A stretch of DNA of 32,000 nucleotides from Crocosphaera subtropica ATCC 51142 (GTDB lineage: Bacteria > Cyanobacteriota > Cyanobacteriia > Cyanobacteriales > Microcystaceae), in the NCBI RefSeq assembly GCF_000017845.1, contig NC_010546.1, forward strand, positions 1,500,001-1,532,000, written 5' to 3'. This document shows positions 6,164 through 29,129 of the stretch, one piece after another; positions within the stretch are counted from its first letter, which is position 1, and every line of letters starts with the position of its first letter. Under the pieces are notes generated by a model. It worked only from the letters and a program-made list of their open reading frames with translations. It had not been told where the DNA came from and made no database searches. Position numbers and translations under genes: made by a program.

Positions 6164-8011
6164 TTAAAAAGCCTTTTTATTCGTAATAGCTATTTTAAAC
6201 CTCTCCCGTAAATCTGCAACAGTTATTGTTCCTAAATCTCCTCCTTGACGAGTGCGAATACTCAGAGTTTGACTTTCAACTTCGCGCTTACCAACAATAG
6301 CAACAACGGGGATTTTTTCCAATTCACTAAGACGAATTTGTTTGCCTAAACGCTCCCCACTTGTATCAACTTCTACTCGATATCCAGCTTTTTTTAACCT
6401 AATTGCCACTGTTTTAGCATAGTCCTGTTGTTCATCACTAACAGGTAATAATCGCAGTTGAATGGGAGCTAACCACAAAGGAAAATCCCCTGCATAATTC
6501 TCAATTAAGATGCCAAAAAATCGCTCTAACGAGCCAAAAATAGCCCGATGAATCATAATAGGTTGTTGGCGACTTCCATCAGCAGCTACATATTCCATGC
6601 CAAAACGTTCAGGTAGATTAAAATCAACTTGAATGGTGGAACATTGCCACAGCCTTCCGATGGCATCTTTAATTTTAATATCAATTTTGGGTCCATAAAA
6701 AGCTCCTCCTCCTCGATCTTCAAGATAATTCCATTGTTTATTATTTAAGGCTTTTATTAATGCTTCAGTTGCTAATTGCCAAACTTGATCACTCCCTACA
6801 GATTTTTCAGGACGAGTGGATAAATTGACTTCATAATCAGTAAACCCAAAATCAGAAAGTATTTTTTCCGTTAAATTTAGGACCCCCAGAATTTCATCAG
6901 CAATTTGTTCCGGTAAACAGAAAATATGAGCATCATCTTGAGTAAACCCTCGTACCCGCATTAAACCATGTAAGACCCCAGATTTTTCATAGCGATAAAC
7001 TGTTCCTAATTCTGCCCATTTTAAAGGAAATTCTCGATAAGAATGCAGGTCATCTTTATAGGTTAAAACATGAAAAGGACAGTTCATCGGTTTAATTTGA
7101 TAAGTTTGATGTTCAACAGCCATTGCCTCAAACATATTTTCTCGATAAAAGTCCCAATGTCCTGATGTTTTCCATAGGTCTAAATTAGCAACATGGGGCG
7201 TATAAAGAAATTGATATCCGTCTTCTAAATGAGCGTTGCGCCAATAATCTTCGATTAAATAACGCATCATTGCCCCTCTAGGATGCCAAAAAACTAAGCC
7301 CCCTCCAGCATCTTCTTGGATACTAAAGAGTTTTAATTGTTGTCCTAACTTGCGGTGATCTCTCCGTTGTGCTTCTTCTTTTTGTGTCAGATAAGCTTGT
7401 AACTGTTCGGGAGTTTCCCACGCTGTCCCATAAATGCGCTGTAACTGCGGTTTGCTCTCATCTCCTTGCCAATAAGCCCCCGCCACACTTTCTAAAGCAA
7501 AAGCCTCCGGGTGAATTTCTCCCGTAAAATTGAGATGAGGCCCCGCACATAAATCCCACCAACAGGTATCAGGAGGCACGAGAACAGGGTTAATTAAAGA
7601 GGGTTGTTGTTCTGGTATATTCCCTCGTCCTCCGTCGGGACTCCCAATAAAATAGCGGGTAATGGACTCTGTTTCAGGAATGCTCTCTAAAATTTCAAGT
7701 TTATAGGGTTCGTTAAGTTCTGCAATTTCTGTCTGAATTTCAGCACGATCTACCACTTCTCGGATAATAGGTAGGTTTGCTTTGATAATTCTTCTCATTT
7801 CTCCTTCAATCTTTTTCATATCTTCTGGAGTAAAGGGGGTCAAGCGGTCAAAGTCGTAGTAAAAACCTGTTTCTGTCCAGGGGCCAATGGTTACTTTTGT
7901 CTCAGGAAACAGAGTTTGAACCGCCATCCCTAAAACATGAGCGCAGGTATGACGGATTTTTACCAGTTGTTGTCGGTCTTTATCTAGGAGTGGGGTGAGT
8001 TGGTTACTCAT
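6164..8011 (-). CDS. thrS: Threonyl-tRNA synthetase paralog lacking the N-terminal TGS domain
   Basis: Class II ThrRS blocks are present: RHTCAHVLG, DLCAGPH, RDHRKLG, KPMNCPFH, FTQDDAHIF, MIHRAIFGSLERF. The start is set at the ATG at 8011 (MSNQLTP). The longer ORF-track start at 8164 would run through the Zur boxes and the divergent gene. Confidence 0.92.
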   Translation of the reverse strand: MSNQLTPLLDKDRQQLVKIRHTCAHVLGMAVQTLFPETKVTIGPWTETGFYYDFDRLTPFTPEDMKKIEGEMRRIIKANLPIIREVVDRAEIQTEIAELNEPYKLEILESIPETESITRYFIGSPDGGRGNIPEQQPSLINPVLVPPDTCWWDLCAGPHLNFTGEIHPEAFALESVAGAYWQGDESKPQLQRIYGTAWETPEQLQAYLTQKEEAQRRDHRKLGQQLKLFSIQEDAGGGLVFWHPRGAMMRYLIEDYWRNAHLEDGYQFLYTPHVANLDLWKTSGHWDFYRENMFEAMAVEHQTYQIKPMNCPFHVLTYKDDLHSYREFPLKWAELGTVYRYEKSGVLHGLMRVRGFTQDDAHIFCLPEQIADEILGVLNLTEKILSDFGFTDYEVNLSTRPEKSVGSDQVWQLATEALIKALNNKQWNYLEDRGGGAFYGPKIDIKIKDAIGRLWQCSTIQVDFNLPERFGMEYVAADGSRQQPIMIHRAIFGSLERFFGILIENYAGDFPLWLAPIQLRLLPVSDEQQDYAKTVAIRLKKAGYRVEVDTSGERLGKQIRLSELEKIPVVAIVGKREVESQTLSIRTRQGGDLGTITVADLRERFKIAITNKKAF

Positions 8012-8021
8012 GCTATAAAAA

Positions 8022-8036
8022 TGATAATCATTATTA
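8022..8036. promoter_or_regulatory. Zur-type box, 11 nt upstream of the thrS ATG
   Basis: TGATAATCATTATTA matches at 14/15. Confidence 0.6.
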
Positions 8037-8038
8037 TC

Positions 8039-8065
8039 TTGACACAAAGAATAGTTTACTATAAA
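8039..8065 (+). promoter_or_regulatory. Sigma70-like promoter for the FAD oxidoreductase gene
   Basis: TTGACA (8039-8044), a 15-nt spacer, then TATAAA (8060-8065). The minus strand reads TATAGT over 8063-8058, a candidate thrS -10. The spacer is shorter than the optimum. Confidence 0.4.
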
Positions 8066-8067
8066 AA

Positions 8068-8082
8068 TGATAATCATTATCA
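8068..8082. promoter_or_regulatory. Perfect Zur-type palindrome
   Basis: TGATAATCATTATCA matches at 15/15 and is a perfect 7-1-7 inverted repeat. It lies directly after the + strand -10 element. Confidence 0.7.
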
Positions 8083-8097
8083 AAAAAGTGACCTGTG

Positions 8098-9315
8098 ATG
8101 AATTCCGCAAACTTAGAAAAGGTGGACATAGCCATTGTAGGTGCCGGTCCGCAAGCGTTAACATTAGTGACTCATATTCTGCAAAAAAAGGCCAAATTTC
8201 GCCGTCGTATGGTGGTTTTAGACCCTAGTGGCAGTTGGTTAAGTCAATGGCGACATCAGTTTGCCGCCCAAAACATCCCCCATTTAAGATCCCCGGCGGT
8301 ACATCATCCCCATCCTAACCCCTATCAGTTGAGAAAATTTGCCGAACATCGTTCAGATGAATTATTTGCCCCTTATGACTTACCAGGGACAAATTTATTT
8401 AATGATTTTTGTGAGGATCTTGTTAAAAGTTGGCAGTTAGAAAATTTAGTTTATTCTGATAAAGTAACTCGAATTTTGCCGATAAAAGTTCGTTCATATA
8501 ATCGATTTCAATTAATGTTAGAAAGTGGTAATCAATTAATTGTTCGTCGAGTTATTTTAGCAACAGGGGGTGGAATTCCTCAATTTCCTGATTGGGTCAA
8601 TAACATTAAAAAAACCTATCCTCAAGATAGATTATTACATTCTCAGCAGATAGATTTAAGAACAGTCAAATTAAAAAATAAACGAATTTTAATTATTGGT
8701 GGAGGCTTAACTTCTGGACATTTAGCAGTGGGGGCAATTGAGCAAGGGGCTAAGGTTATTTTAATGGCAAGACGACAGTTAAAAGAAAAATTATTTGACG
8801 CTGATCCAGGTTGGTTAGGTCCAAAATATTTAAAGGATTTTTATTTAGAATTGGACTGGGAAAAGCGATGGACCCTGATTCATCAAGCCAGAGATGGGGG
8901 ATCAATGACTCCTGCTATGATGTTAAAATTAAGACGGATGACAAGGGATAAACCTTTAACCCTTGAAGAAAATTGTCAAGTGGTTAAAGCTGATTGGAAA
9001 GATAATCAATGGCAAATAAAATGTCAAGATGAAAAACATTTTTCTTGTGATCAAATTTGGTTAGCCACAGGGACACAATTTAGGGTTAATGATCATCCTT
9101 TGTTCACTGATATCCAGAAAAATTATCCGACTCAATTTGTTCAAGGATTACCTATTTTAGATCAATATTTACGTTGGCCATCCTTAGAATTATTTATAAT
9201 GGGAGGCTTATCTGCTTTACAAATTGGTCCCGTTGCCCGTAATTTAGCAGGGGCAATTAAAGGGAGTCAAAGAATTGCTGAAGCCTTAATTAAGCCCAGT
9301 TTAGCTATGCTTTAA
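8098..9315 (+). CDS. FAD/NAD(P)-binding oxidoreductase (two-dinucleotide-fold, N-hydroxylating monooxygenase-like)
   Basis: IAIVGAGPQALT (GxGxxA) lies near the N-terminus and a second fold, ILIIGGGLTSGHLA, lies mid-protein. The start is either the ATG at 8098 or the GTG at 8095. Confidence 0.7.
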   Translation: MNSANLEKVDIAIVGAGPQALTLVTHILQKKAKFRRRMVVLDPSGSWLSQWRHQFAAQNIPHLRSPAVHHPHPNPYQLRKFAEHRSDELFAPYDLPGTNLFNDFCEDLVKSWQLENLVYSDKVTRILPIKVRSYNRFQLMLESGNQLIVRRVILATGGGIPQFPDWVNNIKKTYPQDRLLHSQQIDLRTVKLKNKRILIIGGGLTSGHLAVGAIEQGAKVILMARRQLKEKLFDADPGWLGPKYLKDFYLELDWEKRWTLIHQARDGGSMTPAMMLKLRRMTRDKPLTLEENCQVVKADWKDNQWQIKCQDEKHFSCDQIWLATGTQFRVNDHPLFTDIQKNYPTQFVQGLPILDQYLRWPSLELFIMGGLSALQIGPVARNLAGAIKGSQRIAEALIKPSLAML

Positions 9316-9425: not shown

Positions 9426-9791
9426 ATGAAATCAGCAATCTTCTTCACGCTTATTTCTCTTGGAATAACCAGCCATTCTCTTGTGAATGCTCAAATTCCT
9501 ATCCGAGAACTACAACGAAATACAGGGATCTCAATTTTTGGTGAAGTCAAAGATGTCGTAGGAAACGAATTTATTTTAGATGATGGAACAGGACACATTA
9601 TTGTGGATGCAGGCCCGCGCTGGTATCATCAGATTAATGTAACTTCGGGTGAAAAAATAACCGTTGTTGGAAAATATGATGATGATGATTTTGATGCTTA
9701 CACCATTAGGAAAAATAATGGTGAAGTGATTCAAATTCGTCAACCCGATGGACCTCCTCCTTGGGCTGGTGGTCGTGGTCAAGGAAGATAG
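9426..9791 (+). CDS. Secreted small OB-fold protein (BOF / YgiW-like)
   Basis: Signal peptide MKSAIFFTLISLGITSHSLVNA. The pattern ISIFGEV..FILDDGTGHIIVD..W..V..GEKITVVGKYDDD resembles the YgiW/BOF family. Confidence 0.6.
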   Translation: MKSAIFFTLISLGITSHSLVNAQIPIRELQRNTGISIFGEVKDVVGNEFILDDGTGHIIVDAGPRWYHQINVTSGEKITVVGKYDDDDFDAYTIRKNNGEVIQIRQPDGPPPWAGGRGQGR

Positions 9792-10066: not shown

Positions 10067-12580
10067 CTACAGAAGAATATTCCATAACCCAATCGCTAAA
10101 ATCGAAGTAGATATATGTTGAACCATTAAATATTGAAAAGGCAATTTAGCAATTTTTTGAGTCAAAATGATTGATAAAACCACTCCAAAAATTAACAAGG
10201 TTTCTTGTAAAAAAGTAATAACAGCCGGATGAGCCACCATAACAGGAACTCCTTGCACAGAAAAGCCAAAGGTAGCTAAAGTAATGGGCAAGATTTGCCC
10301 AGCTTCTCCTAAACCAAGGGGCAAGTAATAAGCCAAATTCCCCGCTAAAACTAAAGGTAAATAACCGTATGCTAATTCCTTGAAGGGGCGAATTTTAACA
10401 GTGGATTGAAACCCGCCTAAAAAACCCATGATTTGATGAAAAACCAGAGGGAGTAATGCCGGCAAACTTAATACTAGAACAGCTAATCCTGAATGTATCC
10501 AAAATTGATTGAGATCCCAGGAAAACCCCAATTGAGCTTGTACCTGTGGCAAGCGATGTAAAAACACTGCATCTAATAATAAAAGCAGCAAAGCCACTTC
10601 ATAACTTCGGGGGACATGAGTGGTCCATAACTCAATCCCAGGTGGGCGTAAATTAAACTCCACAGAACGATGGGGACAAGCTTTTAAACAGGTCATACAT
10701 AAAACGCAATCTCGATTGTCTTCAAGTTGGGCAGGATGTGAATAGAGAGGACAACCATTGGTTTCTAACCCTTCCCCTTTTTGGGGGCCACCTTTGTAAC
10801 ATTGATAAGTCGTGCATTGTGCAGAACAGGTTCCTTGTTGCCCTCGTAATTCTGTCATGGAGAGTTTAGCAAACATTCCATTCATGCCACCAATGGGACA
10901 TAAATAACGACACCAAAAGCGACGTTCAAAAATCGTTGAGCAAATCATTGCTCCAGCCGTGATTAATAACAATAAACAAGAAGATAAATAAGCCGTGTTT
11001 TTTAAATCCCAGAGTTCTTCCCACAACAAAATTACGGCAAATAAACCCCATAAAAACCATCCACCCCAAGTTTCAGCTTCGTGACGGGGCCATTTTTTAA
11101 GTTTTCTCGGAAATAACCATAATGACACTTTTTGAGTGAGTTCTCCATAAATCATAAACGGACAAACAGCACACCACAATCTACCCACAAAGAGAAAACC
11201 TATCAACACCAGTGGCCACCACCAAGCCCAAAATAGATTTAAGGCAAAATTTTCTGCTCTTGTTTGGGGGCCAATCCACAGAATAATATTGATTAGAGCA
11301 AAGGCGATTACAGTAAAACCATAATTAAGTCTGTCAGGATACCATGGACTGCGAAAAAACTGACGTAAGCGAGGATATCCTTTGAGAAGATTAAAGCGAA
11401 ATTGCTGTTTTTTGCTTTGTGATGGCCAAATAATTTCTTCGGTGATTTCCTGATAGCCTTCTAACTGTACCAGCGCCCGTTCGATCAGATTTTCCAGTTC
11501 TCTCAAATTGTTGGGGAAGTCGTAAGCTTGGAGTTTTCGGATAGCTTCGGGAGTAATGCTAACTTTGGCTGTTCCCCTTCTGCGACACATCAAACTGATG
11601 TAGTAAGTCACTAAATCTTCAATGTCTTTTTTGCGAACTCGCAAAGGGGGAACTTTAATAATATTCTCTATCAACCCATCAATATTAGAGAGCTTTTTTT
11701 CAGAGATAACAATAATTCGACATTGACTGGTTTTGGCACTCGAAGGAGTGTTTTCTGAACGGCTTACGGGGTAATAAGTACCATCTTTTAATAATTGAGC
11801 AATGGGTTTGAATAACTCAGGGGAAAGTTCTTGAAGATTATTGAGTATCAGCGTTCCTTTGCCTAATGCTTCAAGTAAGCTCAATTTGCCCCCAACTCGC
11901 CCAAATAATTCAGCCCCACTGGCTTGTAATTGAGAACAGTTAATTTGAATAATTGGCTCTCGACGAAAAGGGGAACTAAAATGAAGTAAGGTGGCGAGAT
12001 TGTCTTTTTGTAGGCCAGGTTCGCCAAAAATCAATACAGGTTGACGATTATCTGAGAAGTTTTTGATCTGCGATCGCAATTTAATAGCGTAACGACTCTT
12101 ACCAATGACTCCCCGTTTCACTTTCGTGACTAAATAAGGACGTAAAATGGTTTGTCGTTCCTGTTGAAAACTTAATTCAGAAGATAATTCTTTAAGTTCT
12201 AAGGCTAATTGTTGCGAAAAGGCTTGAGTTATTTCTGGATATTGTTGGAGTAATGACTTAAAGTCTTCGGCATCTATGCACCATAATTCGCATCGGTTTA
12301 ACGTCACTAATGTTCTGGAAACGGGTTGCTCTAATATTAACGCCCTGAGATTAATTAAGGTTCCTGTCAGTAAACTAGCTTCTGGGGTTCCTTGACTTTG
12401 AATTTGTCCAGATTTGAGAATATAAAGTCTTTCAGGGGCAGTTCCACCTTTAACTAACGTTTGTTCCCCTTCCACCGTAATTAACTTCATGTGAAGGGCG
12501 ATGGCTTCAAGCACCTCAGAAGTTAATACAGTTAGGGGAGTATGTTCTCTTAGCCAAGTGATTAAATCAGAAGTAGCCAT
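10067..12580 (-). CDS. Multidomain protein: cNMP-binding-like domain, degenerate sigma54-interaction AAA+ domain, polytopic membrane 4Fe-4S (NapH/MauN-like) domain
   Basis: The N-terminus has LYILKSGQI..LRALIL..SRTLV. The AAA+ blocks are VLIFGEPGLQKD, AELFG, GTLILNNLQEL, PPLRVRKKDIEDL and FPNNLRELENLIE. The C-terminus has multiple TM helices with CAVCPF, CRYLCPIGG and CVLCMTCLKACPH. Confidence 0.8.
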   Translation of the reverse strand: MATSDLITWLREHTPLTVLTSEVLEAIALHMKLITVEGEQTLVKGGTAPERLYILKSGQIQSQGTPEASLLTGTLINLRALILEQPVSRTLVTLNRCELWCIDAEDFKSLLQQYPEITQAFSQQLALELKELSSELSFQQERQTILRPYLVTKVKRGVIGKSRYAIKLRSQIKNFSDNRQPVLIFGEPGLQKDNLATLLHFSSPFRREPIIQINCSQLQASGAELFGRVGGKLSLLEALGKGTLILNNLQELSPELFKPIAQLLKDGTYYPVSRSENTPSSAKTSQCRIIVISEKKLSNIDGLIENIIKVPPLRVRKKDIEDLVTYYISLMCRRRGTAKVSITPEAIRKLQAYDFPNNLRELENLIERALVQLEGYQEITEEIIWPSQSKKQQFRFNLLKGYPRLRQFFRSPWYPDRLNYGFTVIAFALINIILWIGPQTRAENFALNLFWAWWWPLVLIGFLFVGRLWCAVCPFMIYGELTQKVSLWLFPRKLKKWPRHEAETWGGWFLWGLFAVILLWEELWDLKNTAYLSSCLLLLITAGAMICSTIFERRFWCRYLCPIGGMNGMFAKLSMTELRGQQGTCSAQCTTYQCYKGGPQKGEGLETNGCPLYSHPAQLEDNRDCVLCMTCLKACPHRSVEFNLRPPGIELWTTHVPRSYEVALLLLLLDAVFLHRLPQVQAQLGFSWDLNQFWIHSGLAVLVLSLPALLPLVFHQIMGFLGGFQSTVKIRPFKELAYGYLPLVLAGNLAYYLPLGLGEAGQILPITLATFGFSVQGVPVMVAHPAVITFLQETLLIFGVVLSIILTQKIAKLPFQYLMVQHISTSILAIGLWNILL

Positions 12581-13752: not shown

Positions 13753-14778
13753 TTATGCCAAACACTGATTAAGTTGTTGTTTGAGCATTTCCCCATCTAA
13801 ATTACGTCCAATTAACACTAATTGATTTCGGGGAGTGGTTTTCCAGTCATCAGCATTCATCGTATAACGTTTCCCACTCAGTTGAAAAATATGGCGTAAT
13901 TGACTTTCTTGAAACCATAATATTCCTTTTGCTCGAAAAACATTAGTAGTCAAATCATCCACAAAAAAGTTTTGAAATTTCTCTACAATAAAAGGGCGAT
14001 CGCTTTCAAAAGCAATAGAAACAAATCCATCTATGGTTAAATGATCAGAATGGTGATGGTGATGATCGTGATCATGTTCATGATCATGGTGGTGATGATG
14101 TTCAGTTGTGTCTTCTATCCTAAAATTCTCAGCATTATTAACATCAATATCGAGAATTAAAGGAAGAGGAACTTCTGTATATTGACTATGAATAATTCTC
14201 GCCCCTGACTTAATTTGATTAATATCTGTTTCTAATTGTTTAACTTTTTCATCTGAGATTAAATCGGTTTTATTGAGCAGAATAATATCACCATAAGTAA
14301 TCTGACGTAATGCAGCTTCACTTTGAGAATGTTCAGAGGTAAAGGTTTCTGCATCAACAACAGTTAAAATAGAATCGAGTCGGGTCATGTCCCGTAATTC
14401 AGTATTCAGAAAGGTTAAAGCAATAGGCAACGGATCAGCCACTCCTGTGGTTTCTAAAATTAAATAATCAATGTTATCCCCTTGCTCAAGAACTTGATAA
14501 ACGGCCTCAACTAAATCATCATTAATCGTGCAACAAATACAACCATTACTTAATGCCACCATATTTTCATCAATGGAGACTAATAACTGACTATCAATAT
14601 CAATATCACCAAACTCATTGACTAATACGGCAACTTTTAACTGTTGATTATTGGTCAAAATATGGTTAACTAAAGTGGTTTTTCCACTGCCTAAAAAACC
14701 TGTAATAATGGTTACAGGCATTCCCTGTTTAGGAAGATTTAAAGGAGATTTGTTAGGAACGGATAATGTTTGAGTCAT
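13753..14778 (-). CDS. COG0523/CobW-family G3E GTPase with His-rich insert (paralog D)
   Basis: Motifs GFLGSGKTTLVN, GCICCT, ETTGVADP and the CobW_C tail. The insert EHHHHHDHEHDHDHHHHHSDH carries 14 His in 21 residues. Confidence 0.92.
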   Translation of the reverse strand: MTQTLSVPNKSPLNLPKQGMPVTIITGFLGSGKTTLVNHILTNNQQLKVAVLVNEFGDIDIDSQLLVSIDENMVALSNGCICCTINDDLVEAVYQVLEQGDNIDYLILETTGVADPLPIALTFLNTELRDMTRLDSILTVVDAETFTSEHSQSEAALRQITYGDIILLNKTDLISDEKVKQLETDINQIKSGARIIHSQYTEVPLPLILDIDVNNAENFRIEDTTEHHHHHDHEHDHDHHHHHSDHLTIDGFVSIAFESDRPFIVEKFQNFFVDDLTTNVFRAKGILWFQESQLRHIFQLSGKRYTMNADDWKTTPRNQLVLIGRNLDGEMLKQQLNQCLA

Positions 14779-14846: not shown

Positions 14847-15485
14847 TTAACCTTGAAATGTGGGAGAATGACGAATTAAACTCATAAATTCTTGCCGAGT
14901 TTTGGCATCCTCTGCAAATACACCTCGCACTGCACTGGTAGTGGTCCAAGAACCCGGTTTTTGAACGCCACGCATAACCATGCACATATGGGTCGCTTCT
15001 ACCACAACGGCCACCCCTTTGGGTTGTAATAATCCTTGTAAGGCATCTGCAATCTGTGCGGTGAGGCGTTCTTGTACCTGTAACCGTCGTCCGTACATTT
15101 CACAAATACGGGCAATTTTTGAGAGGCCAATGACTTTCCCATCCGGAATATAAGCAACATGAGCGCGACCCAAAATGGGTAAAATATGATGCTCACAGGA
15201 ACTAAAGAGATCAATATCCCTCACTAGAACCATTTCATCGGTATTTTCGTGAAATACTGCCCCATTGAGCAGTTCATCAAGGGATTGATGATAGCCAGAG
15301 GTCAAAAATTTTAGGGCTTTGACCACCCGTTTTGGCGTGTCTCTGAGTCCTTCTCGGTCAGGATCTTCTCCCAGTCCTAAAAGTAGGGTTCGGACGGCCT
15401 GACGCATTTCTTCCTCGGTGACAGGAGGATGGGATGAACTGACAAGTCTCGGCAAAGCAGAATTATATTCCTTGGATAAAGTCAT
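14847..15485 (-). CDS. folE: GTP cyclohydrolase I, type IA (Zn-ligand triad retained)
   Basis: 212 aa. It has SSCEHHILP and [10 protein letters not shown] (the Cys/His/Cys zinc triad positions of FolE) and QVQERLT. Confidence 0.93.
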
Positions 15486-15592: not shown

Positions 15593-17101
15593 TTACATTT
15601 CTAGGGTTGATAATTGATGCAATAATGCCTCTTTATCTGCTTCACTTAAAGAGTCTCCTGATTGAATCTTGTCACAAATGTCGGGAAGTTTTTCTGTTAC
15701 CATCTGACAAATTTTTGTTTCTGCTTCTCTAATATTTTCTAGGGGGACATCATCTAAAATTCCTTCGTTGATAGCAAATAAAACAGCAATTTGTTCAGCA
15801 ACAGAAAGAGGATGAGATTGAGGTTGTTTGAGGATTTCTCGCACTCGTCTACCTCGTTCTAAGGTTTGTCGGGTATCTTCATCTAATTGGGTTCCAAAAC
15901 GGGCAAAAACTTCGACTTCTTGGAATTGAGAATAGGATAAGCGTAAATCTCCGGCTACTTCTCCATAAGCCCGTAATTGGGTTTTTCCGCCCACCCGTGA
16001 CACTGATTTTCCCACAGAAACCGCAGGTAAAATTCCTTTTTGATAGAGATCCGGAGACAGATAAATTTGACCGTCTGTGATAGAAATTAAATTAGTGGGA
16101 ATATAAGCAGAAATACTTTGAGCCTGGGTTTCAATAATGGGTAAGGCAGTTAAAGAACCGCCGCCCCATTCTTCTCGAAGATGGGTAGAACGTTCGAGTA
16201 ATCGAGAGTGAATGTAAAAAATATCGCCGGGATAGGCTTCTCTTCCGGGAGGACGGCGTAATAAGAGAGAAAGCTCTCGATAAGCCCAAGCATGACGGGT
16301 TAAATCATCATAGACAATTAAAACATCCCGTCCCTTTTCCATAAAATACTCCCCGATAGAAGTAGCTGCATAAGGGGTAATATATTGCAAACCGGGGGGA
16401 TCTTCTCCATCGGCTACGACCACGATAGAATAGTCTAGGGCTTCTGCTTGCCGTAATTGTTCGATAACCTTGGCAACCGCCGAAGTACGTTGACCAATGG
16501 CGCAATAAATACAAATAACATCCTTATCCTTTTGATTTAATATGGTATCCACTGCGATCGCCGTTTTTCCAATTTGGCGATCGCCGATAATCAGTTCTCG
16601 CTGTCCCCGGCCGACGGGTATTAACGCATCAACCACTTTTAACCCGGTTTGTAAGGGAACCGTAACCGGCGCACGATGGATAAAAGGGGGTGCTTTGCGT
16701 TCGATGGGAAATTGAGTTTCAGTAGAGATGGTTCCTTGATTATCTAAAGGACGACCTAAACCGTCAACAATACGTCCTAATAAGGCTTCTCCCACGGGAA
16801 TTTGTACAATTTTACCGGTTCGTTTAACTTCTTGACCGGCTTCTAAATGTTCGCTATTTCCTAATAGAATAACCCCTAATTCATCTACGTCTAAGTTAAA
16901 GGCAATCCCTAAAATATCCCCTGGAAAACGCACTAATTCATCGGCTTTAACGTTGGGTAAACCGATAACTTTAGCGACTCCTTGATCAATGGACTTCAGA
17001 ATCCCAATTTCTCGCGGTTGAATTTTGGCTTGATAGTTATTTAATGTTTCGTCAAGCTGAGTAAGGGTATTTTCAAGAACGGTTTGTAAGGTTTTTTCCA
17101 T
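15593..17101 (-). CDS. atpA: N-type ATPase alpha subunit
   Basis: 502 aa. It has the Walker A GDRQIGKT, and F1-alpha blocks are present throughout. The N-type assignment comes from the operon context. Confidence 0.92.
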
Positions 17102-25217: not shown

Positions 25218-28200
25218 TTATTTGTTCTGGTGCAAGATGTCAGTCAATTTAAGGTAAAACGTTGCCCCTTCTCCCACAACACTTTCAGCCCAAATTTGAC
25301 CGCCATGACGATGAATAATACGCTGAACAATGGAAAGGCCAATTCCTGTCCCCTCAAAGTCTTTTTGAGAGTGTAAGCGTTGAAACGCCCCGAATAGCTG
25401 ATCGGCATATTTCATATCAAAACCAACCCCATTATCAGCCACAAAAATAGTGCCATCCTCTAAACAGTTAATTTCGATTTTAATGGGATTCCGTTCCCGA
25501 CTAAACTTGATACTATTTTGTAATAAATTAATAAACACTTGTTGTAATAAAGCCATATCACCTGGGACGGTGGGTAATTGTCCGATCTCAAATTTGATCT
25601 GATCCTCCCCGGAAGAAACCATACTAATAGCAGTTTCCACCACAGCATTGATATTAACATCGTAAAAAACTAACTCCCGTCGGCCTACTCGTGACAAAGT
25701 AAGTAACCCATCAATTAAATGACCCATCTTTTCACTACTTTTTTCGATCACCTCTAAATAATGAATGACTTTGGGATCTTCTTTGGCATCAGTGTCTACA
25801 AGTCTTTGTTTTAAAGCATTCACAAAACCATGAATATGGCGTAACGGCGCACGCAGATCATGGGAAACCGAGTAACAAAAAGAGTCCAATTCTTGATTAG
25901 TGACTTCTAGTTGGGTGGTTCGTTCCATCAACACTTGTTTTGTCCTAACCAACTCTGTCATGTCACGGGAGGTTCCGAGAAGGGCATAAATCTCTCCTTG
26001 GAGATTTTGGAGAGGGACTTTATAGGTATCAAAATAGCGATCACCGTTTGGTAAAGCAATGATTTCTTCAAGATGGAGGGTTTCCCCTGAGTTAAATACT
26101 TGTTGGTTTTGTTGAACAAAATAATCCGCCATTTCAGGGCTAAAACACTCGAAAATACTTGTACCTTGTATTTGCTGATGGCTATCAAAGCCGATCCCTT
26201 GAGCAAAAACTTGGTTACAAAATAACAGTTTCATGGTGTTTCGTTCCACCACAAACACGAAGTCAGGAAGGGTATTCAACAGCATTTCGAGTTCTGCGGT
26301 GCGTTGGGCTACCCTTTCCTCTAATTCCTGATTTTGCTGTTCTAATTGTTCATTTAATCGTTTGATCTCTTGTTCTCTCTGTTTTTGTTCGGTAATATCT
26401 TCTGCTAATCCCGTGACACGAACTAAGTCCCCTGATTGATTTTTCACTGGAAACCCCCGATCTCTAATCCAGTGTAGGGTTCCATCGGGCCAAATAATGC
26501 GATAGTGATAGTCAAATCCTCCTTGAAGTAATTTTTGCAATAAATTCTTTTTAATTTGTTGGCGATCTTCAGGGTGAATGGCTTCTATCCATTGTGTCGG
26601 ATTTTTGTAGATATCCTCTGGATTGTAGCCCCAAATATCTTTACAGGCAGGACTGACATAGAGACTTTTATGATAAGTGGGATCGGTCTTAGAAAGCTCA
26701 ATCATCCAAAAAACTTCATGGATATTTTCTGCCAGTTGACGAAATTTTTGTTCACTTTCTCTTAAAGCTTCTTCTGCCTGTTTTCGTTCGCTAATGTCTC
26801 TAGAATTGGCTACAATTCCTTGTATATTAGGATTATGAAGTTGGTTACTGGCTACGGTTTCCATCCAAACATATTCATTCCTTTTCGTTTGATATCGATA
26901 CTGAACCGTAATGGTTTCTTGAGGATGATGGAGTAGATAAGAAAAAGTTTTGCCTACCCTGGTACGATCATCCGGATGAATTAAATAAAAGGTCTTTATA
27001 TCTTGCATTTCTTCAAGAGAAAAACCATGAATTTTCTCAGCAGCAGGAGAATTATAGATTAGCTGTCCTTCTCTATCGAAAATTGAAACAATATCAGAGG
27101 AATAGGTTAATAAGGCTTGTAATTTATTTTCACTGGCTTCTTTTTCTTGTTCTGCTTGTTTCCGACTCGCATCATTACGATAGGCTTTAATTAAGTTGGC
27201 ACAAGTGGTTAAAAAGGGTTGTAAGTATTCCACTAAATCGTAGTTATAACTCTCTTGAGAATTAGCCACTCCAACGATTCCCACTAACTGCTGATTATGG
27301 TAAAAAGGAAGTCCTAAAAAAGCATCCAGAAACCGATGACCTTTAGGTAAATCTCTTCCTATGGAATCCCTGTTAGGATGATTAGCAATGACCGGTTTTC
27401 CTGTGGTCATGACTGCTGTGAAGAGAGTCTTTAAATTATGAAATTCCATAGCATGGGGCGCATTTTCACTGTAAAATTCTCTCGTGGCTTCATTCCAGGT
27501 AATATTCATGAACGCATGGGTTTTGAGATAAGATTTTCCTCTTACTTTTATATGAGTTTCTTCTAGAGAATATTCCCCTTGATGACTATGACCTATTTCT
27601 GCAATAAAGCTATATTCACTATCGGTTAGGCTTAAAAGAGTTTCTAATAAGTCATTAAATAAAACATTAGGAGGTGCATCGGCAATAAATTGCGATTGTG
27701 CTAGGGTAATTCCTTGTAAAAGATCGTTACTTTTCTTGAGTTCAATTTCTGCTTTTTTTTCTTGGGTAATGTCTTCCGTAATACAAACTAAATATTCAGG
27801 GTTTTTATCCTCATCATACAGGGGAACTTTGACAGTGCGAACGGTTCTTCTGCCTTTATTATAGCTATCGATCAATTCTTCAGGAATCTTTTTAGGAACT
27901 CCTTGGGCAAACACTTCTCGGTCTTGTTGTTCATAAGAATTGGCTTGTTCTGGAGGAAATAAATCATGACCTGTTTTTCCAATAACTTGAGAAGAATTCA
28001 GTCCGACAATATCTTCACAATATTTATTAAGTAGTAAAACTTGACCAAATTTATCGGGTCTAGCATCTTTCACAAATAGAGCAACAGGTAAATAATCAAT
28101 AATCGTTTGTAAAAAAGTTTTAGATTTTTTTAAGTCTAATTCTGCTTTTTTAGTTTGAGTCATGTTACGAACAATGGCAATAATTTGCTGTTCTTTATAA

Positions 28201-29129
28201 GGTACTAATCTCGCTTCATAATGTTCTTCTCCTGTGGACATCTGTAAACTATATTCTAGGGAAACCAAAGTATTGTGTTTAAGGGTATCAGCTATGGCTT
28301 TTTCTACTTTTTTGCTGACCGTAGGAGGTAAAATTTCTGTGAGAGGTTTTTGTAAGAAAATTTCTGGAGAAACATAAAGAAGAGAATTGGCTGAACTTTT
28401 ATAGTCTATAATAGTGCCATCAGCTTTTACTCGAAAAAATAAGTCAGGAATAACATTAAAAATAGCTTCCAATTCTTCTTGATTTTCTCTTAACTCTTTT
28501 TGAACTTTTTTGATTGTTGTAATATCTCTTCCCTCAAAGAGTAAAAAAACAATATCTCCTGCTTCGTCTTTTACAGGTTTTAGAGAAAAATCAACATTAT
28601 TGTTTTGACCATTACTATCAAGATATGTGGTTTCAAACCGAATATTTTCCCCTTGTTTTGCTTCTAGAATAGCTGTTTTTATTTGTGTTTGTAATTCAGA
28701 TGAATCTCCCCACCAAGGATTTTCCCAAAAAAGTGTCTCCCTAATTTCATCTACTTTCAAACCCATAGAATTTAAAGCCGTTAGATTAACTTCGACTAAT
28801 CTTCCTTCTAAATCTAATAAGCCGATAAGTTCAAAGGTTTGATGAAAAATAGCTCTAAATTTTGCTTCTCTTTTTTTGCGTTTTGTGATTTCTTCTGCTA
28901 GTTCAGTTTTAAGCTGTTTTAAGGCAAGCGATCGCCTAATAATTACCAAGAGGACAAGTAGGATGATCATCAGACTGAATAGACAACTAATGATTAAATA
29001 GCTGCTCTCATTTATATATCCATCTAAATAAAATGATAGAGTCTTTAATAAAGCAAAAAAAGATTTCATCCGTAAATGGTTCCAAGTAATCATAAAATCT
29101 AGTAATCGTATTTCATTCATGATACACAT
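25218..29129 (-). CDS. Membrane-anchored multi-PAS/GAF sensor histidine kinase
   Basis: It has an N-terminal TM helix, several PAS/PAC-like repeats separated by coiled-coil linkers, and a GAF-like block (LGLPFYHNQQLVGIVGVAN). It also has the H-box SVSHDLRAPL and the N/G boxes NLLQNSIKF, DNGVGFD and GTGIGLSIV. The exact start codon is uncertain (29129, 29120 or 29069). Confidence 0.88.
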   Translation of the reverse strand: MCIMNEIRLLDFMITWNHLRMKSFFALLKTLSFYLDGYINESSYLIISCLFSLMIILLVLLVIIRRSLALKQLKTELAEEITKRKKREAKFRAIFHQTFELIGLLDLEGRLVEVNLTALNSMGLKVDEIRETLFWENPWWGDSSELQTQIKTAILEAKQGENIRFETTYLDSNGQNNNVDFSLKPVKDEAGDIVFLLFEGRDITTIKKVQKELRENQEELEAIFNVIPDLFFRVKADGTIIDYKSSANSLLYVSPEIFLQKPLTEILPPTVSKKVEKAIADTLKHNTLVSLEYSLQMSTGEEHYEARLVPYKEQQIIAIVRNMTQTKKAELDLKKSKTFLQTIIDYLPVALFVKDARPDKFGQVLLLNKYCEDIVGLNSSQVIGKTGHDLFPPEQANSYEQQDREVFAQGVPKKIPEELIDSYNKGRRTVRTVKVPLYDEDKNPEYLVCITEDITQEKKAEIELKKSNDLLQGITLAQSQFIADAPPNVLFNDLLETLLSLTDSEYSFIAEIGHSHQGEYSLEETHIKVRGKSYLKTHAFMNITWNEATREFYSENAPHAMEFHNLKTLFTAVMTTGKPVIANHPNRDSIGRDLPKGHRFLDAFLGLPFYHNQQLVGIVGVANSQESYNYDLVEYLQPFLTTCANLIKAYRNDASRKQAEQEKEASENKLQALLTYSSDIVSIFDREGQLIYNSPAAEKIHGFSLEEMQDIKTFYLIHPDDRTRVGKTFSYLLHHPQETITVQYRYQTKRNEYVWMETVASNQLHNPNIQGIVANSRDISERKQAEEALRESEQKFRQLAENIHEVFWMIELSKTDPTYHKSLYVSPACKDIWGYNPEDIYKNPTQWIEAIHPEDRQQIKKNLLQKLLQGGFDYHYRIIWPDGTLHWIRDRGFPVKNQSGDLVRVTGLAEDITEQKQREQEIKRLNEQLEQQNQELEERVAQRTAELEMLLNTLPDFVFVVERNTMKLLFCNQVFAQGIGFDSHQQIQGTSIFECFSPEMADYFVQQNQQVFNSGETLHLEEIIALPNGDRYFDTYKVPLQNLQGEIYALLGTSRDMTELVRTKQVLMERTTQLEVTNQELDSFCYSVSHDLRAPLRHIHGFVNALKQRLVDTDAKEDPKVIHYLEVIEKSSEKMGHLIDGLLTLSRVGRRELVFYDVNINAVVETAISMVSSGEDQIKFEIGQLPTVPGDMALLQQVFINLLQNSIKFSRERNPIKIEINCLEDGTIFVADNGVGFDMKYADQLFGAFQRLHSQKDFEGTGIGLSIVQRIIHRHGGQIWAESVVGEGATFYLKLTDILHQNK

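Follow-up and report, generated by a model that had tools for sequence, protein, structure and literature searches.

A predicted membrane iron-sulfur protein of cyanobacteria and green-lineage algae with a degenerate sigma-54 activator domain

Introduction

A 32,000-nucleotide stretch of the Crocosphaera subtropica ATCC 51142 genome (contig NC_010546.1, positions 1,500,001 to 1,532,000; the window) contains a gene whose name poses a question. The open reading frame (ORF) at 10067..12580 on the minus strand, positioned as in an earlier reading of the sequence alone (hereafter the original prediction), encodes a protein of 837 aa with an ATG start and a TAG stop. The product is 100% identical to ACB50848.1 / WP_009544305.1 of this organism and appears under the source names 'nitrogen assimilation regulatory protein' and 'sigma 54-interacting transcriptional regulator'. 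The gene is labelled as a sigma-54-dependent or nitrogen regulator in many cyanobacterial and several algal genomes. What, then, does such a protein do in a lineage that, as the original prediction stated and the literature agrees, has no sigma-54 (PMC3162934, PMC2853384)?

Francke et al. reported that true enhancer-binding proteins (EBPs) are also absent from cyanobacteria, and that databases list false EBPs in species devoid of sigma-54 (PMC3162934); the present family evidently belongs to these false EBPs. Our analysis indicates that, despite the regulator label, the gene product is an uncharacterised, predicted membrane iron-sulfur (Fe-S) protein carrying the inactivated remnant of a transcription motor. 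The family is real, well conserved and functionally uncharacterised, and combines a NapH-like polyferredoxin with a core of the atypical-EBP kind. Since, on the present evidence, the product cannot be a sigma-54 regulator, regulon inferences and transcription factor knockout screens that include the gene are misdirected. Literature searches for the protein family, covering slr1529, the annotation phrases, and chloroplast together with sigma-54 domain, returned no paper on it.

Results

Domain architecture

The ORF product consists of three parts: a cyclic nucleotide-binding (CNB)-like domain, an AAA+ domain of the bacterial enhancer-binding protein (bEBP) type with its lid, and a NapH-like module of nine transmembrane (TM) helices with 12 invariant Cys residues. 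In window coordinates, the layout is as follows.

10067..12580, minus strand: whole ORF, with the stop codon at 10067-10069
12179..12520, minus strand: CNB-like N-terminal domain (cNMP_binding fold), residues 21-134, from Pfam and the SthK alignment
12134..12235, minus strand: long predicted linker helix between the CNB-like and AAA+ domains, residues 116-149, from AlphaFold2 (AF2) secondary structure
11681..12109, minus strand: AAA+ alpha/beta subdomain, bEBP-type, residues 158-300, from Pfam, phmmer and Foldseek
11408..11641, minus strand: AAA+ lid, residues 314-391, containing PPLRVRKKDI and the sensor II region NNLRELEN (11489-11512)
10922..11344, minus strand: NapH-like four-helix core, TM1-TM4, residues 413-553, from hydropathy, NCBIfam and AF2
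10646..10855, minus strand: ferredoxin-like insert, residues 576-645, with eight invariant Cys
10070..10615, minus strand: C-terminal extension of about five family-specific TM helices, residues 656-837, from hydropathy and AF2

The domain-architecture check suggested by the original prediction returned cNMP_binding (residues 36-114; 42.8 bits, cutoff 27.5), Sigma54_activat (residues 159-298; E 5e-12) and Fer4_5 (two stretches; 31.4 bits, cutoff 22), all above their Pfam cutoffs, as was AAA_lid_14 (residues 314-391; E 1e-14); weaker ferredoxin motifs lie at residues 620-637. In NCBIfam, the NapH/MauN model TIGR02163 matched residues 459-643 with an E-value of ~3e-13, at 50 bits against a cutoff of 213, and the NapH equivalog NF007013 scored 31 bits against a cutoff of 234. 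A string of sigma-54 activator models also matched, each far under its own cutoff.

The membrane Fe-S module

Nine TM helices are found by hydropathy and in the AF2 model (pLDDT 81.7, pTM 0.83). The TIGR02163 match extends over TM2-TM4 and the Fe-S part, in agreement with the proposed fusion to a NapH-like polytopic Fe-S module, and the Cys clusters that had been listed, CAVCP, CRYLCPIGG and CVLCMTCLKACP, are all present. The first two stand at the membrane edge.

11159..11173, minus strand: first membrane-edge motif CAVCP (CX2CP), residues 470-474, at the end of TM2
10895..10912, minus strand: second membrane-edge motif CRYLCP (CX3CP), at the end of TM4; CRYLCPIGG covers residues 557-565

C470, C473 and P474 are invariant in cyanobacterial and distant bacterial homologs, and C557 and C561 are likewise invariant. 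In the insert, the Cys residues are C585, C589, C594 and C610, the last followed by Pro, and C625, C628, C631 and C635, again with Pro after the last; the second group forms the motif CVLCMTCLKACP at residues 625-636, and the spacing of the first, C-x3-C-x4-C-x15-CP, is atypical. All 12 Cys (12/12) are invariant between the cyanobacterial proteins and bacterial homologs of 25-30% identity. The insert is predicted to bind two [4Fe-4S] clusters. The N-terminus is soluble and presumed to be cytoplasmic, and the TM2-TM3 loop and the segment after TM4 are rich in Lys and Arg; the positive-inside rule thus predicts a cytoplasmic location for the Fe-S insert and the two Cys-Pro motifs.

The C-terminal extension is conserved to the terminus in algal and distant homologs, with near-invariant P742, L745, A750, L753, Q792 and G799. 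The C-terminal 187 aa matched no Pfam family, even at E <= 10, and a Foldseek comparison of the membrane-module model with the PDB gave nothing better than E 0.23, that is, no solved fold match.

The AAA+ domain

The central domain had been assigned to the bEBP type, and the present analyses concur. Besides the Sigma54_activat match, it matches NifA by phmmer (E 5.6e-20), and Foldseek aligned its model at TM-scores of 0.77-0.81 and ~3 Å root-mean-square deviation with the cores of NtrC1, PspF, FlrC and FleQ, as well as with those of two atypical EBPs, NtrX and VpsR. Despite the loss of motifs, the AAA+ fold is intact in the model. These losses were mapped by residue-level alignment to NifA and NtrC1 and in a MAFFT motif table, with conservation counted over 81 cyanobacterial orthologs.

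12002..12025, minus strand: altered Walker A, GEPGLQKD, aligned to GESGTGKE (canonical bEBP GESGxGKE)
11870..11911, minus strand: L1/GAFTGA loop position, ELFGRVGGKLSLLE, from the alignment to bEBPs
11834..11857, minus strand: dead Walker B, GTLILNNL, aligned to GTLFLDEI
11654..11701, minus strand: arginine-finger region, EKKLSNIDGLIENIIK, where the bEBP FREDLYYRL segment is expected

The family Walker A, F-G-E-P-G-L-[E69/Q7/G5]-K-D-N, is essentially invariant. Its Lys192 is retained throughout, and the preceding Gly, whose loss the original prediction had noticed, is replaced by Glu in 69/81 orthologs and by Gln in 7/81, so that the family consensus at residue 191 is Glu and the Gln of the window protein is a minority state. 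The GAFTGA loop, also reported missing, is physically deleted: ELFGRVGGKLS--LLE aligns with ELFGhekGAFTGAvsskeGfFE, a loss of ~8 residues that is fixed among the 81 orthologs, where a conserved turn, G-R-x-G-G-K-(P)-G-L, i.e. GRxGGK(P/L)(G/S)L, takes the place of L1. In the altered Walker B (LILNNL), Asn247 and Asn248 stand for Asp-Glu in 80/81 and 81/81 orthologs, respectively. The original prediction had allowed that correct alignment might restore an intact Walker B or GAFTGA; neither was found in the NifA/NtrC1 alignment or the MAFFT table. A defect beyond those described earlier is the deletion of ~9 residues of the arginine-finger segment (FRxDLYYRL), which leaves no Arg there and is likewise fixed in the 81 orthologs. 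In the lid, Arg360 is kept in the window protein, and in only 53/81 orthologs. The C-terminal helix-turn-helix (HTH) is indeed absent: no Pfam match to HTH_8 or another DNA-binding domain was obtained, even at E <= 10 on the C-terminal half, and the nine TM helices stand there instead.

Without Walker B acids, Arg fingers and a GAFTGA loop, the AAA+ domain has most likely been kept as a scaffold of the pseudo-ATPase kind or as a switch for oligomerisation. The earlier suggestion of a repurposed, probably non-hydrolysing AAA+ scaffold is the best reading of this domain, backed by the Arg-finger loss and by purifying selection on the degenerate domain. The invariant Lys192 region and the conserved loop that replaces GAFTGA suggest that the remnant has gained a new ligand or partner surface. 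For the evolution of AAA+ proteins, the family presents an activator motor that lost its catalytic and sigma-54-contact motifs and yet was long retained under selection, fused to a redox module, and in the phototroph clade the L1 loop and the Arg-finger segment were physically cut out.

The CNB-like sensor and the linker helix

The N-terminal domain is related to the CNB domain of SthK (phmmer E 1.7e-7), and this alignment locates the cassette that would contact a cyclic nucleoside monophosphate (cNMP).

12311..12364, minus strand: degenerate phosphate-binding cassette, GTLINLRALILEQPVSRT, residues 73-90, from the SthK alignment

Here, FGEMALILRAPRTA aligns with SthK INLRALILEQPVSR, the canonical form being F-G-E...R-[ST]-A. 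The FGE has become I-N-L, so that N77-L78 occupy the place of the ribose-contacting Gly-Glu, and the position of the phosphate-contacting Arg is Val87, in a column that holds A, T or V in all family members. The nearby Arg89 does not align with the contact position and occurs in only 29/81 orthologs. As the cassette of the cyanobacterial clade lacks both the Gly-Glu and the Arg, canonical cAMP/cGMP binding by the cyanobacterial protein is unlikely, and the 'nucleotide-binding sensor' of the original prediction is not supported for this clade.

At its end, the linker helix carries a conserved ExERxxxLRPYL motif, and algal orthologs without a CNB domain have retained this motif as well. Across the family, the N-terminal sensors vary (CNB, CNB plus GAF, AIM24 plus CNB, or none) over a constant core of AAA+, lid and membrane module. 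Such swapping of sensors is typical of an input module.

A single gene under purifying selection

That two genes had been joined by a frameshift or an assembly error, a risk raised by the original prediction, or that the gene is a decaying pseudogene, has a negligible probability. A single ORF of equal length was found at 80/80 fetched cyanobacterial loci from independent assemblies, a single exon of the Klebsormidium gene bridges the AAA+ lid and TM1-TM2 (window residues 385-471), and the ratio of nonsynonymous to synonymous substitution rates (dN/dS, omega) is 0.00-0.23 in all domains. We therefore rejected the artefact explanation. The values by domain are given below, identity being the mean pairwise identity among the 81 orthologs and dN/dS being computed against the three closest orthologs.

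CNB-like domain: identity 0.48 (lowest), dN/dS 0.15-0.22 (0.13-0.22 at the widest)
Linker helix: identity 0.67, dN/dS 0.03-0.08
AAA+ alpha/beta: identity 0.63, dN/dS 0.13-0.23
AAA+ lid: identity 0.64, dN/dS 0.06-0.10
TM1-4: identity 0.83, dN/dS 0.06-0.07
Fe-S insert: identity 0.93 (highest), dN/dS 0.00-0.01 (0.00-0.05 at the widest)
C-terminal helices: identity 0.61, dN/dS 0.11-0.14

Omega thus stays under 0.25 in all domains: purifying selection maintains even the 'dead' ones, and constraint is strongest on the redox module.

Distribution in cyanobacteria and algae

The description of the protein as an orphan did not survive the searches. Full-length orthologs of 60-90% identity occur across cyanobacterial orders, green-lineage algae also have the family, and distant members are found in Desulfobacterota-type bacteria. 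The 120 top matches of a homolog search were nearly all full-length, at 63-100% identity, and included Moorena, Limnospira, Lyngbya, Halothece, Gloeothece and Geminocystis. A scan of species-representative genomes gave at least 581 matching stretches, the best 80 of which were taken as loci; these are 80 distinct cyanobacterial loci from Nostocales, Pleurocapsales, Oscillatoriales, Chroococcales, Leptolyngbyaceae and Pseudanabaenales. Acaryochloris and Thermosynechococcaceae also carry a family member. A further, exhaustive scan of 1.84 billion representatives yielded ~400 cluster representatives at E <= 1e-30, many of them full-length at 28-33% identity.

Algal orthologs are encoded by Klebsormidium nitens (KFL_007280100; Streptophyta) and Elliptochloris bilobata (WJX81_005394; NCBI name). 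A protein of Picocystis salinarum (Chlorophyta), assigned to this alga by its database name alone, served as an intermediate search query. The Klebsormidium gene spans 10.2 kb with at least 11 exons and the Elliptochloris gene 10.0 kb with at least 15, each with ~820 codons; the Crocosphaera protein matches their exons at 33-90% identity, and their gene neighbours are of eukaryotic type. The many exons, the neighbours and the exon matches together indicate that both genes are nuclear and not contamination. In the algal proteins, GEPGL(E/F)K and the Fe-S cysteines are retained, and Walker B is again non-acidic (ENV, NNA or NNV).

In a neighbour-joining tree of a 661-column core, the algal clade is monophyletic (94/100) and sister to the cyanobacteria (100/100); algae, cyanobacteria and the deeper-branching protein P0128 are split from the Desulfobacterota-type branch (100/100). 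This is the pattern that endosymbiotic gene transfer would give, and the Ser/Arg-rich N-terminal extension of the algal proteins may serve plastid targeting. A conserved Fe-S membrane protein has therewith been kept from cyanobacteria into chlorophyte and streptophyte nuclear genomes with its function unassigned. Proteins of such a distribution often serve photosynthetic electron transport, redox homeostasis or cofactor assembly.

Two observations concern individual members. The WJX81_005394 model omits part of the exon encoding CxxCxxCxxxCP (L085 13915-14001; JALJOU010000023.1); since this exon can be read in the DNA, where it is 90% identical to the Crocosphaera protein, the gap is an annotation error. 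In a variant from a Trichocoleus desertorum metagenome-assembled genome (MAG), P0020 (1121 aa; also P0012 and P0014), the AAA+ module is duplicated in tandem, the first copy reading GEAGVGK / LVLDHL, which retains the Asp of Walker B, and the second copy GEPGLGKDN / LLLNNI.

Distant relatives and the order of losses

The distant full-length relatives have the same architecture at 28-33% identity and come from MAGs named Desulfuromonadales, Desulfobacterales and 'Proteobacteria bacterium'. Their JGI annotation is 'transcriptional regulator with AAA-type ATPase domain/polyferredoxin'. On one of their contigs, there is in addition a gene for a canonical sigma-54 activator of the response-regulator type with HTH_8. 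In a motif table of 16 membrane-fused representatives of this branch, Walker A is mostly canonical (GExGTGKE). GAFTGA is intact in 0/16 (GAIPSA, GAFAEA, GAFSDE and others), pairs such as KN, TN, HH, SH and EN stand for the Asp-Glu of Walker B in all but three partial exceptions, and both Arg fingers are lost in 16/16. Several members keep a canonical cNMP cassette (FGEMALLTxEPRSASV). As these relatives from sigma-54-bearing lineages are degenerate as well, the dead state is a trait of the fusion family and not a result of the absence of sigma-54, contrary to the tie that the original prediction had implied.

Soluble proteins of uncultured bacteria, P0324, P0334 and P0346 (~492-497 aa), combine cNMP_binding, Sigma54_activat and HTH_8. 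P0324 and P0334 have a canonical cNMP cassette, all bEBP motifs intact and no membrane domain, and are apparently genuine cNMP-regulated sigma-54 activators. Proteins of this type share 35-37% identity with the distant membrane-fused branch over ~350 aa of CNB and AAA+, and are plausible ancestors of the N-terminal module.

From these comparisons we infer a parsimonious history in three steps. A cNMP-responsive bEBP would have traded its HTH for a NapH-like membrane module; the ATPase and sigma-54-contact functions would have been lost with the fusion or soon after it, while sigma-54 was still in the lineage; and the cyanobacterial and algal clade would later have dropped both the L1 and the Arg-finger segment, and its cNMP pocket would have decayed.

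For one distant homolog, P0283 on contig WVZF01000601.1 of the 'Proteobacteria bacterium' MAG, the flanks were read (L083 538-6590 and 9527-10106). On one side lies a partner-switching set, comprising STAS, a SpoIIE phosphatase with Cache/HAMP and a HATPase_c_2 kinase-like protein, together with a multihaem cytochrome/Ni_hydr_CYTB fusion; on the other side lies a DAC (c-di-AMP synthase) gene. This arrangement is absent from the second contig examined.

Discussion

Comparison with known systems

NapH, NosR and RdhC share a four-TM module with two CX3CP motifs and two C-terminal 4Fe-4S motifs, which has been proposed to oxidise quinol, and both NosR and RdhC were first mis-assigned as transcription regulators (PMC5928378). 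The present protein resembles NapH/MauN, NosR, NirI and RdhC (PceC) in its four-helix core with two Cys-Pro motifs at helix ends, followed by two ferredoxin-type motifs, and NapH/MauN TIGR02163 is its best family-level match over residues 459-643. It departs from NapH/MauN in its sub-cutoff score, in a first motif that is CX2CP rather than CX3CP, and in the odd spacing of the first ferredoxin motif. Unlike NapH, NosR and RdhC, it has five extra C-terminal TM helices without a known homolog and a ~400-aa N-terminus of CNB and pseudo-AAA+ domains, undescribed for those families, and no nap, nos, mau or rdh genes adjoin it. FMN_bind, which in NosR and RdhC is periplasmic and has a covalent-FMN Thr motif, had no Pfam match, and the NosR model scored E 9e-4 and 17.6 bits against a cutoff of 1000.

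On the N-terminal side, the protein is like the atypical EBPs TyrR, PhhR, HupR, HsfA, NtrX and VpsR in having a bEBP-type AAA+ domain without a functional GAFTGA; VpsR also has a degenerate Walker B, with DE replaced by ND (PMC6158489), and structures of NtrX and VpsR rank high among the structural matches of our model. However, atypical EBPs are soluble DNA-binding factors with a C-terminal HTH, whereas the present protein is an integral membrane protein without one, and its degeneration, with the L1 loop and Arg-finger segment deleted, exceeds theirs. The order of CNB, helix and AAA+ is that of the soluble activators P0324 and P0334, which differ in keeping all motifs, the cNMP cassette and HTH_8, and in lacking a membrane domain.

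Function and competing explanations

As the most economical mechanism, we propose that the protein is a sensor-regulated membrane polyferredoxin built on a pseudo-AAA+ coupling scaffold, with the redox module as effector and the N-terminus as input, a reading to which we give a probability of roughly 55%. It would be a membrane-anchored polyferredoxin of the NapH/NosR type, with a four-helix core, two cytoplasm-facing Cys-x(2-3)-Cys-Pro motifs, a two-cluster insert and five further helices. Its cytoplasmic N-terminus would have a regulatory role and derive from a cNMP-responsive sigma-54 activator, the membrane module having taken the place of the DNA-binding domain. The long helix would relay the state of the variable N-terminal sensor to the AAA+ scaffold, which may change its assembly or conformation; this change would then control, via the Fe-S module, how electrons pass between the quinone pool of the membrane and a partner in the cytoplasm or stroma.

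Several points weigh against this proposal. Because the NapH match lies far under its cutoff and no solved homolog was found, quinone coupling is drawn by analogy. The degenerate CNB pocket of the cyanobacterial clade leaves the ligand of the sensor in doubt, and the invariant Lys192 within FGEPGLEKDN means that binding of a nucleotide or another ligand may persist and matter. Genomic context gives no hint of a redox partner, in cyanobacteria or in the distant relatives: all-against-all clustering of the ORFs within +/-8 kb of the 80 cyanobacterial loci revealed no conserved neighbours, even in 90%-identical relatives, the most recurrent family (192 aa) occurring at 12/80 loci at variable distance and orientation, and the two non-cyanobacterial contigs have no neighbours in common. 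No biochemical or genetic data on any family member were found in the literature.

The direction of signalling might also be the reverse. The membrane Fe-S/Cys module would then sense the redox state of (plasto)quinone, O2 or reactive oxygen species, and the pseudo-AAA+ ring would be the output, binding or letting go of a soluble partner. The near-invariance of the GAFTGA-replacing loop and of the altered P-loop GEPGLEKDN, which suggests a new interaction surface at the output site of bEBPs, would suit such a redox sensor, as would the long association of NosR, NirI and RdhC with regulatory phenotypes (PMC5928378); the lack of an adjoining partner gene also fits a signalling protein. However, constraint on the redox module far exceeds that on the AAA+ domain, a pattern more typical of a catalytic core than of a sensor, the variable N-terminal domains already provide an input, and no partner is known, so that we regard this reversed flow as rather unlikely.

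A still less probable role is that of a CcoG- or NosR-like metal reductase or cofactor-maturation factor, supplying reduced Cu or Fe, or electrons, for the assembly of photosynthetic or respiratory metalloproteins. Like CcoG/FixG/RdxA, the present protein is a membrane polyferredoxin of the Fer4_5 class, and the combination of Fer4_5 with two [4Fe-4S] clusters is common to CcoG and NosR. For CcoG, cupric reductase activity is established: with its 4Fe-4S clusters on the cytoplasmic side, it reduces a substrate in the cytoplasm (PMC8456105). The family is moreover conserved in oxygenic phototrophs, whose thylakoids need Cu and Fe. On the other hand, its N- and C-terminal extensions differ from those of CcoG/FixG/RdxA, and neither the Pfam nor the NCBIfam output contained a CcoG model, the Ig-like FixG_C domain or FMN_bind. 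There is also no linkage to copper or iron genes. Expression data that might speak for a metal function come from Synechocystis slr1529, which bears the same legacy name ('nitrogen assimilation regulatory protein / ntrX') but is of unconfirmed orthology, and is thus a lead only (PMC3516471, PMC4182526, PMC5318462). The mRNA of slr1529 is lower on iron depletion (PMC3516471) and falls to 0.29x at 3 uM copper (PMC4182526), and the gene has a co-regulated antisense RNA (PMC3516471, PMC4182526, PMC5318462); its knockout grows normally in BG11, with a distinct metabolite profile at 72 h (PMC3516471, PMC4182526, PMC5318462).

That the annotation is right, and the protein is a cNMP-regulated enhancer-binding or atypical-EBP transcription regulator, is highly improbable. 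The significant Sigma54_activat and cNMP_binding matches and the source names speak for it, and atypical EBPs without GAFTGA do work with sigma-70 (PMC6158489). Yet every known atypical EBP retains a DNA-binding domain (PMC6158489), in the position of which the present protein has nine TM helices, and sigma-54 is missing from cyanobacteria according to the literature, as are GAFTGA, Walker B and the Arg fingers from the protein itself. Orthologs are nuclear genes in eukaryotic algae, and the 118-bp upstream region contains no NtcA-type GTAN8TAC site, the total of such sites in the window not being above chance. Promoter and terminator scans near the gene likewise gave counts at chance level. 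With most features of a sigma-54 activator lost and no DNA-binding domain, a true or atypical EBP was rejected.

Returning to the sensor-regulated polyferredoxin, we tentatively extend the proposal, as a possibility that we hold to be well short of probable: the family may be a hitherto unrecognised, universally conserved membrane component of oxygenic phototrophs, derived from the plastid ancestor in green algae, that acts on the plastoquinone pool as a redox switch or as an electron valve gated by a signal, its NapH-like polyferredoxin being regulated through ligand- or redox-controlled assembly of a dead, bEBP-derived AAA+ ring. If so, it would be the first example of an AAA+ domain from a transcription motor that was exapted to regulate electron transfer in a membrane as a pseudo-enzyme. 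The hypothesis is directly testable in tractable models such as Synechocystis, Synechococcus and green algae.

Neighbouring genes in the window

The neighbours of the gene in the window encode an alpha/beta hydrolase, a COG0523/CobW GTPase, GTP cyclohydrolase I, a FAD/NAD(P)-binding ORF like lysine/ornithine monooxygenases, a BOF-like protein and ThrS. Those with observations of their own are as follows.

9426-9791, plus strand: 121-aa ORF with a signal-peptide-like hydrophobic N-terminus, convergent with the studied gene; its match to BOF (bacterial OB-fold), 24.5 bits, is just under the Pfam cutoff of 25.8
8095-9315, plus strand: 406-aa FAD/NAD(P)-binding ORF like lysine/ornithine N-monooxygenases (PF13434, PF13454)
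13753-14778, minus strand: CobW/COG0523 GTPase with a long His-rich tract, HHHHHDHEHDHDHHHHH
14847-15485, minus strand: GTP cyclohydrolase I (FolE), adjoining the GTPase gene
15593-17101, minus strand: 502-aa ATP synthase alpha/beta-family gene, immediately downstream of which lies FolE and not an atp gene
25218-29129, minus strand: very large ORF of 1303 aa

The GTG start of the ORF at 8095-9315 overlaps the 5' end of the divergent thrS (6164-8164), so that one of the two start codons is probably over-extended. The pairing of CobW/COG0523 with FolE resembles zinc-homeostasis (Zur-regulon-type) arrangements in other bacteria.

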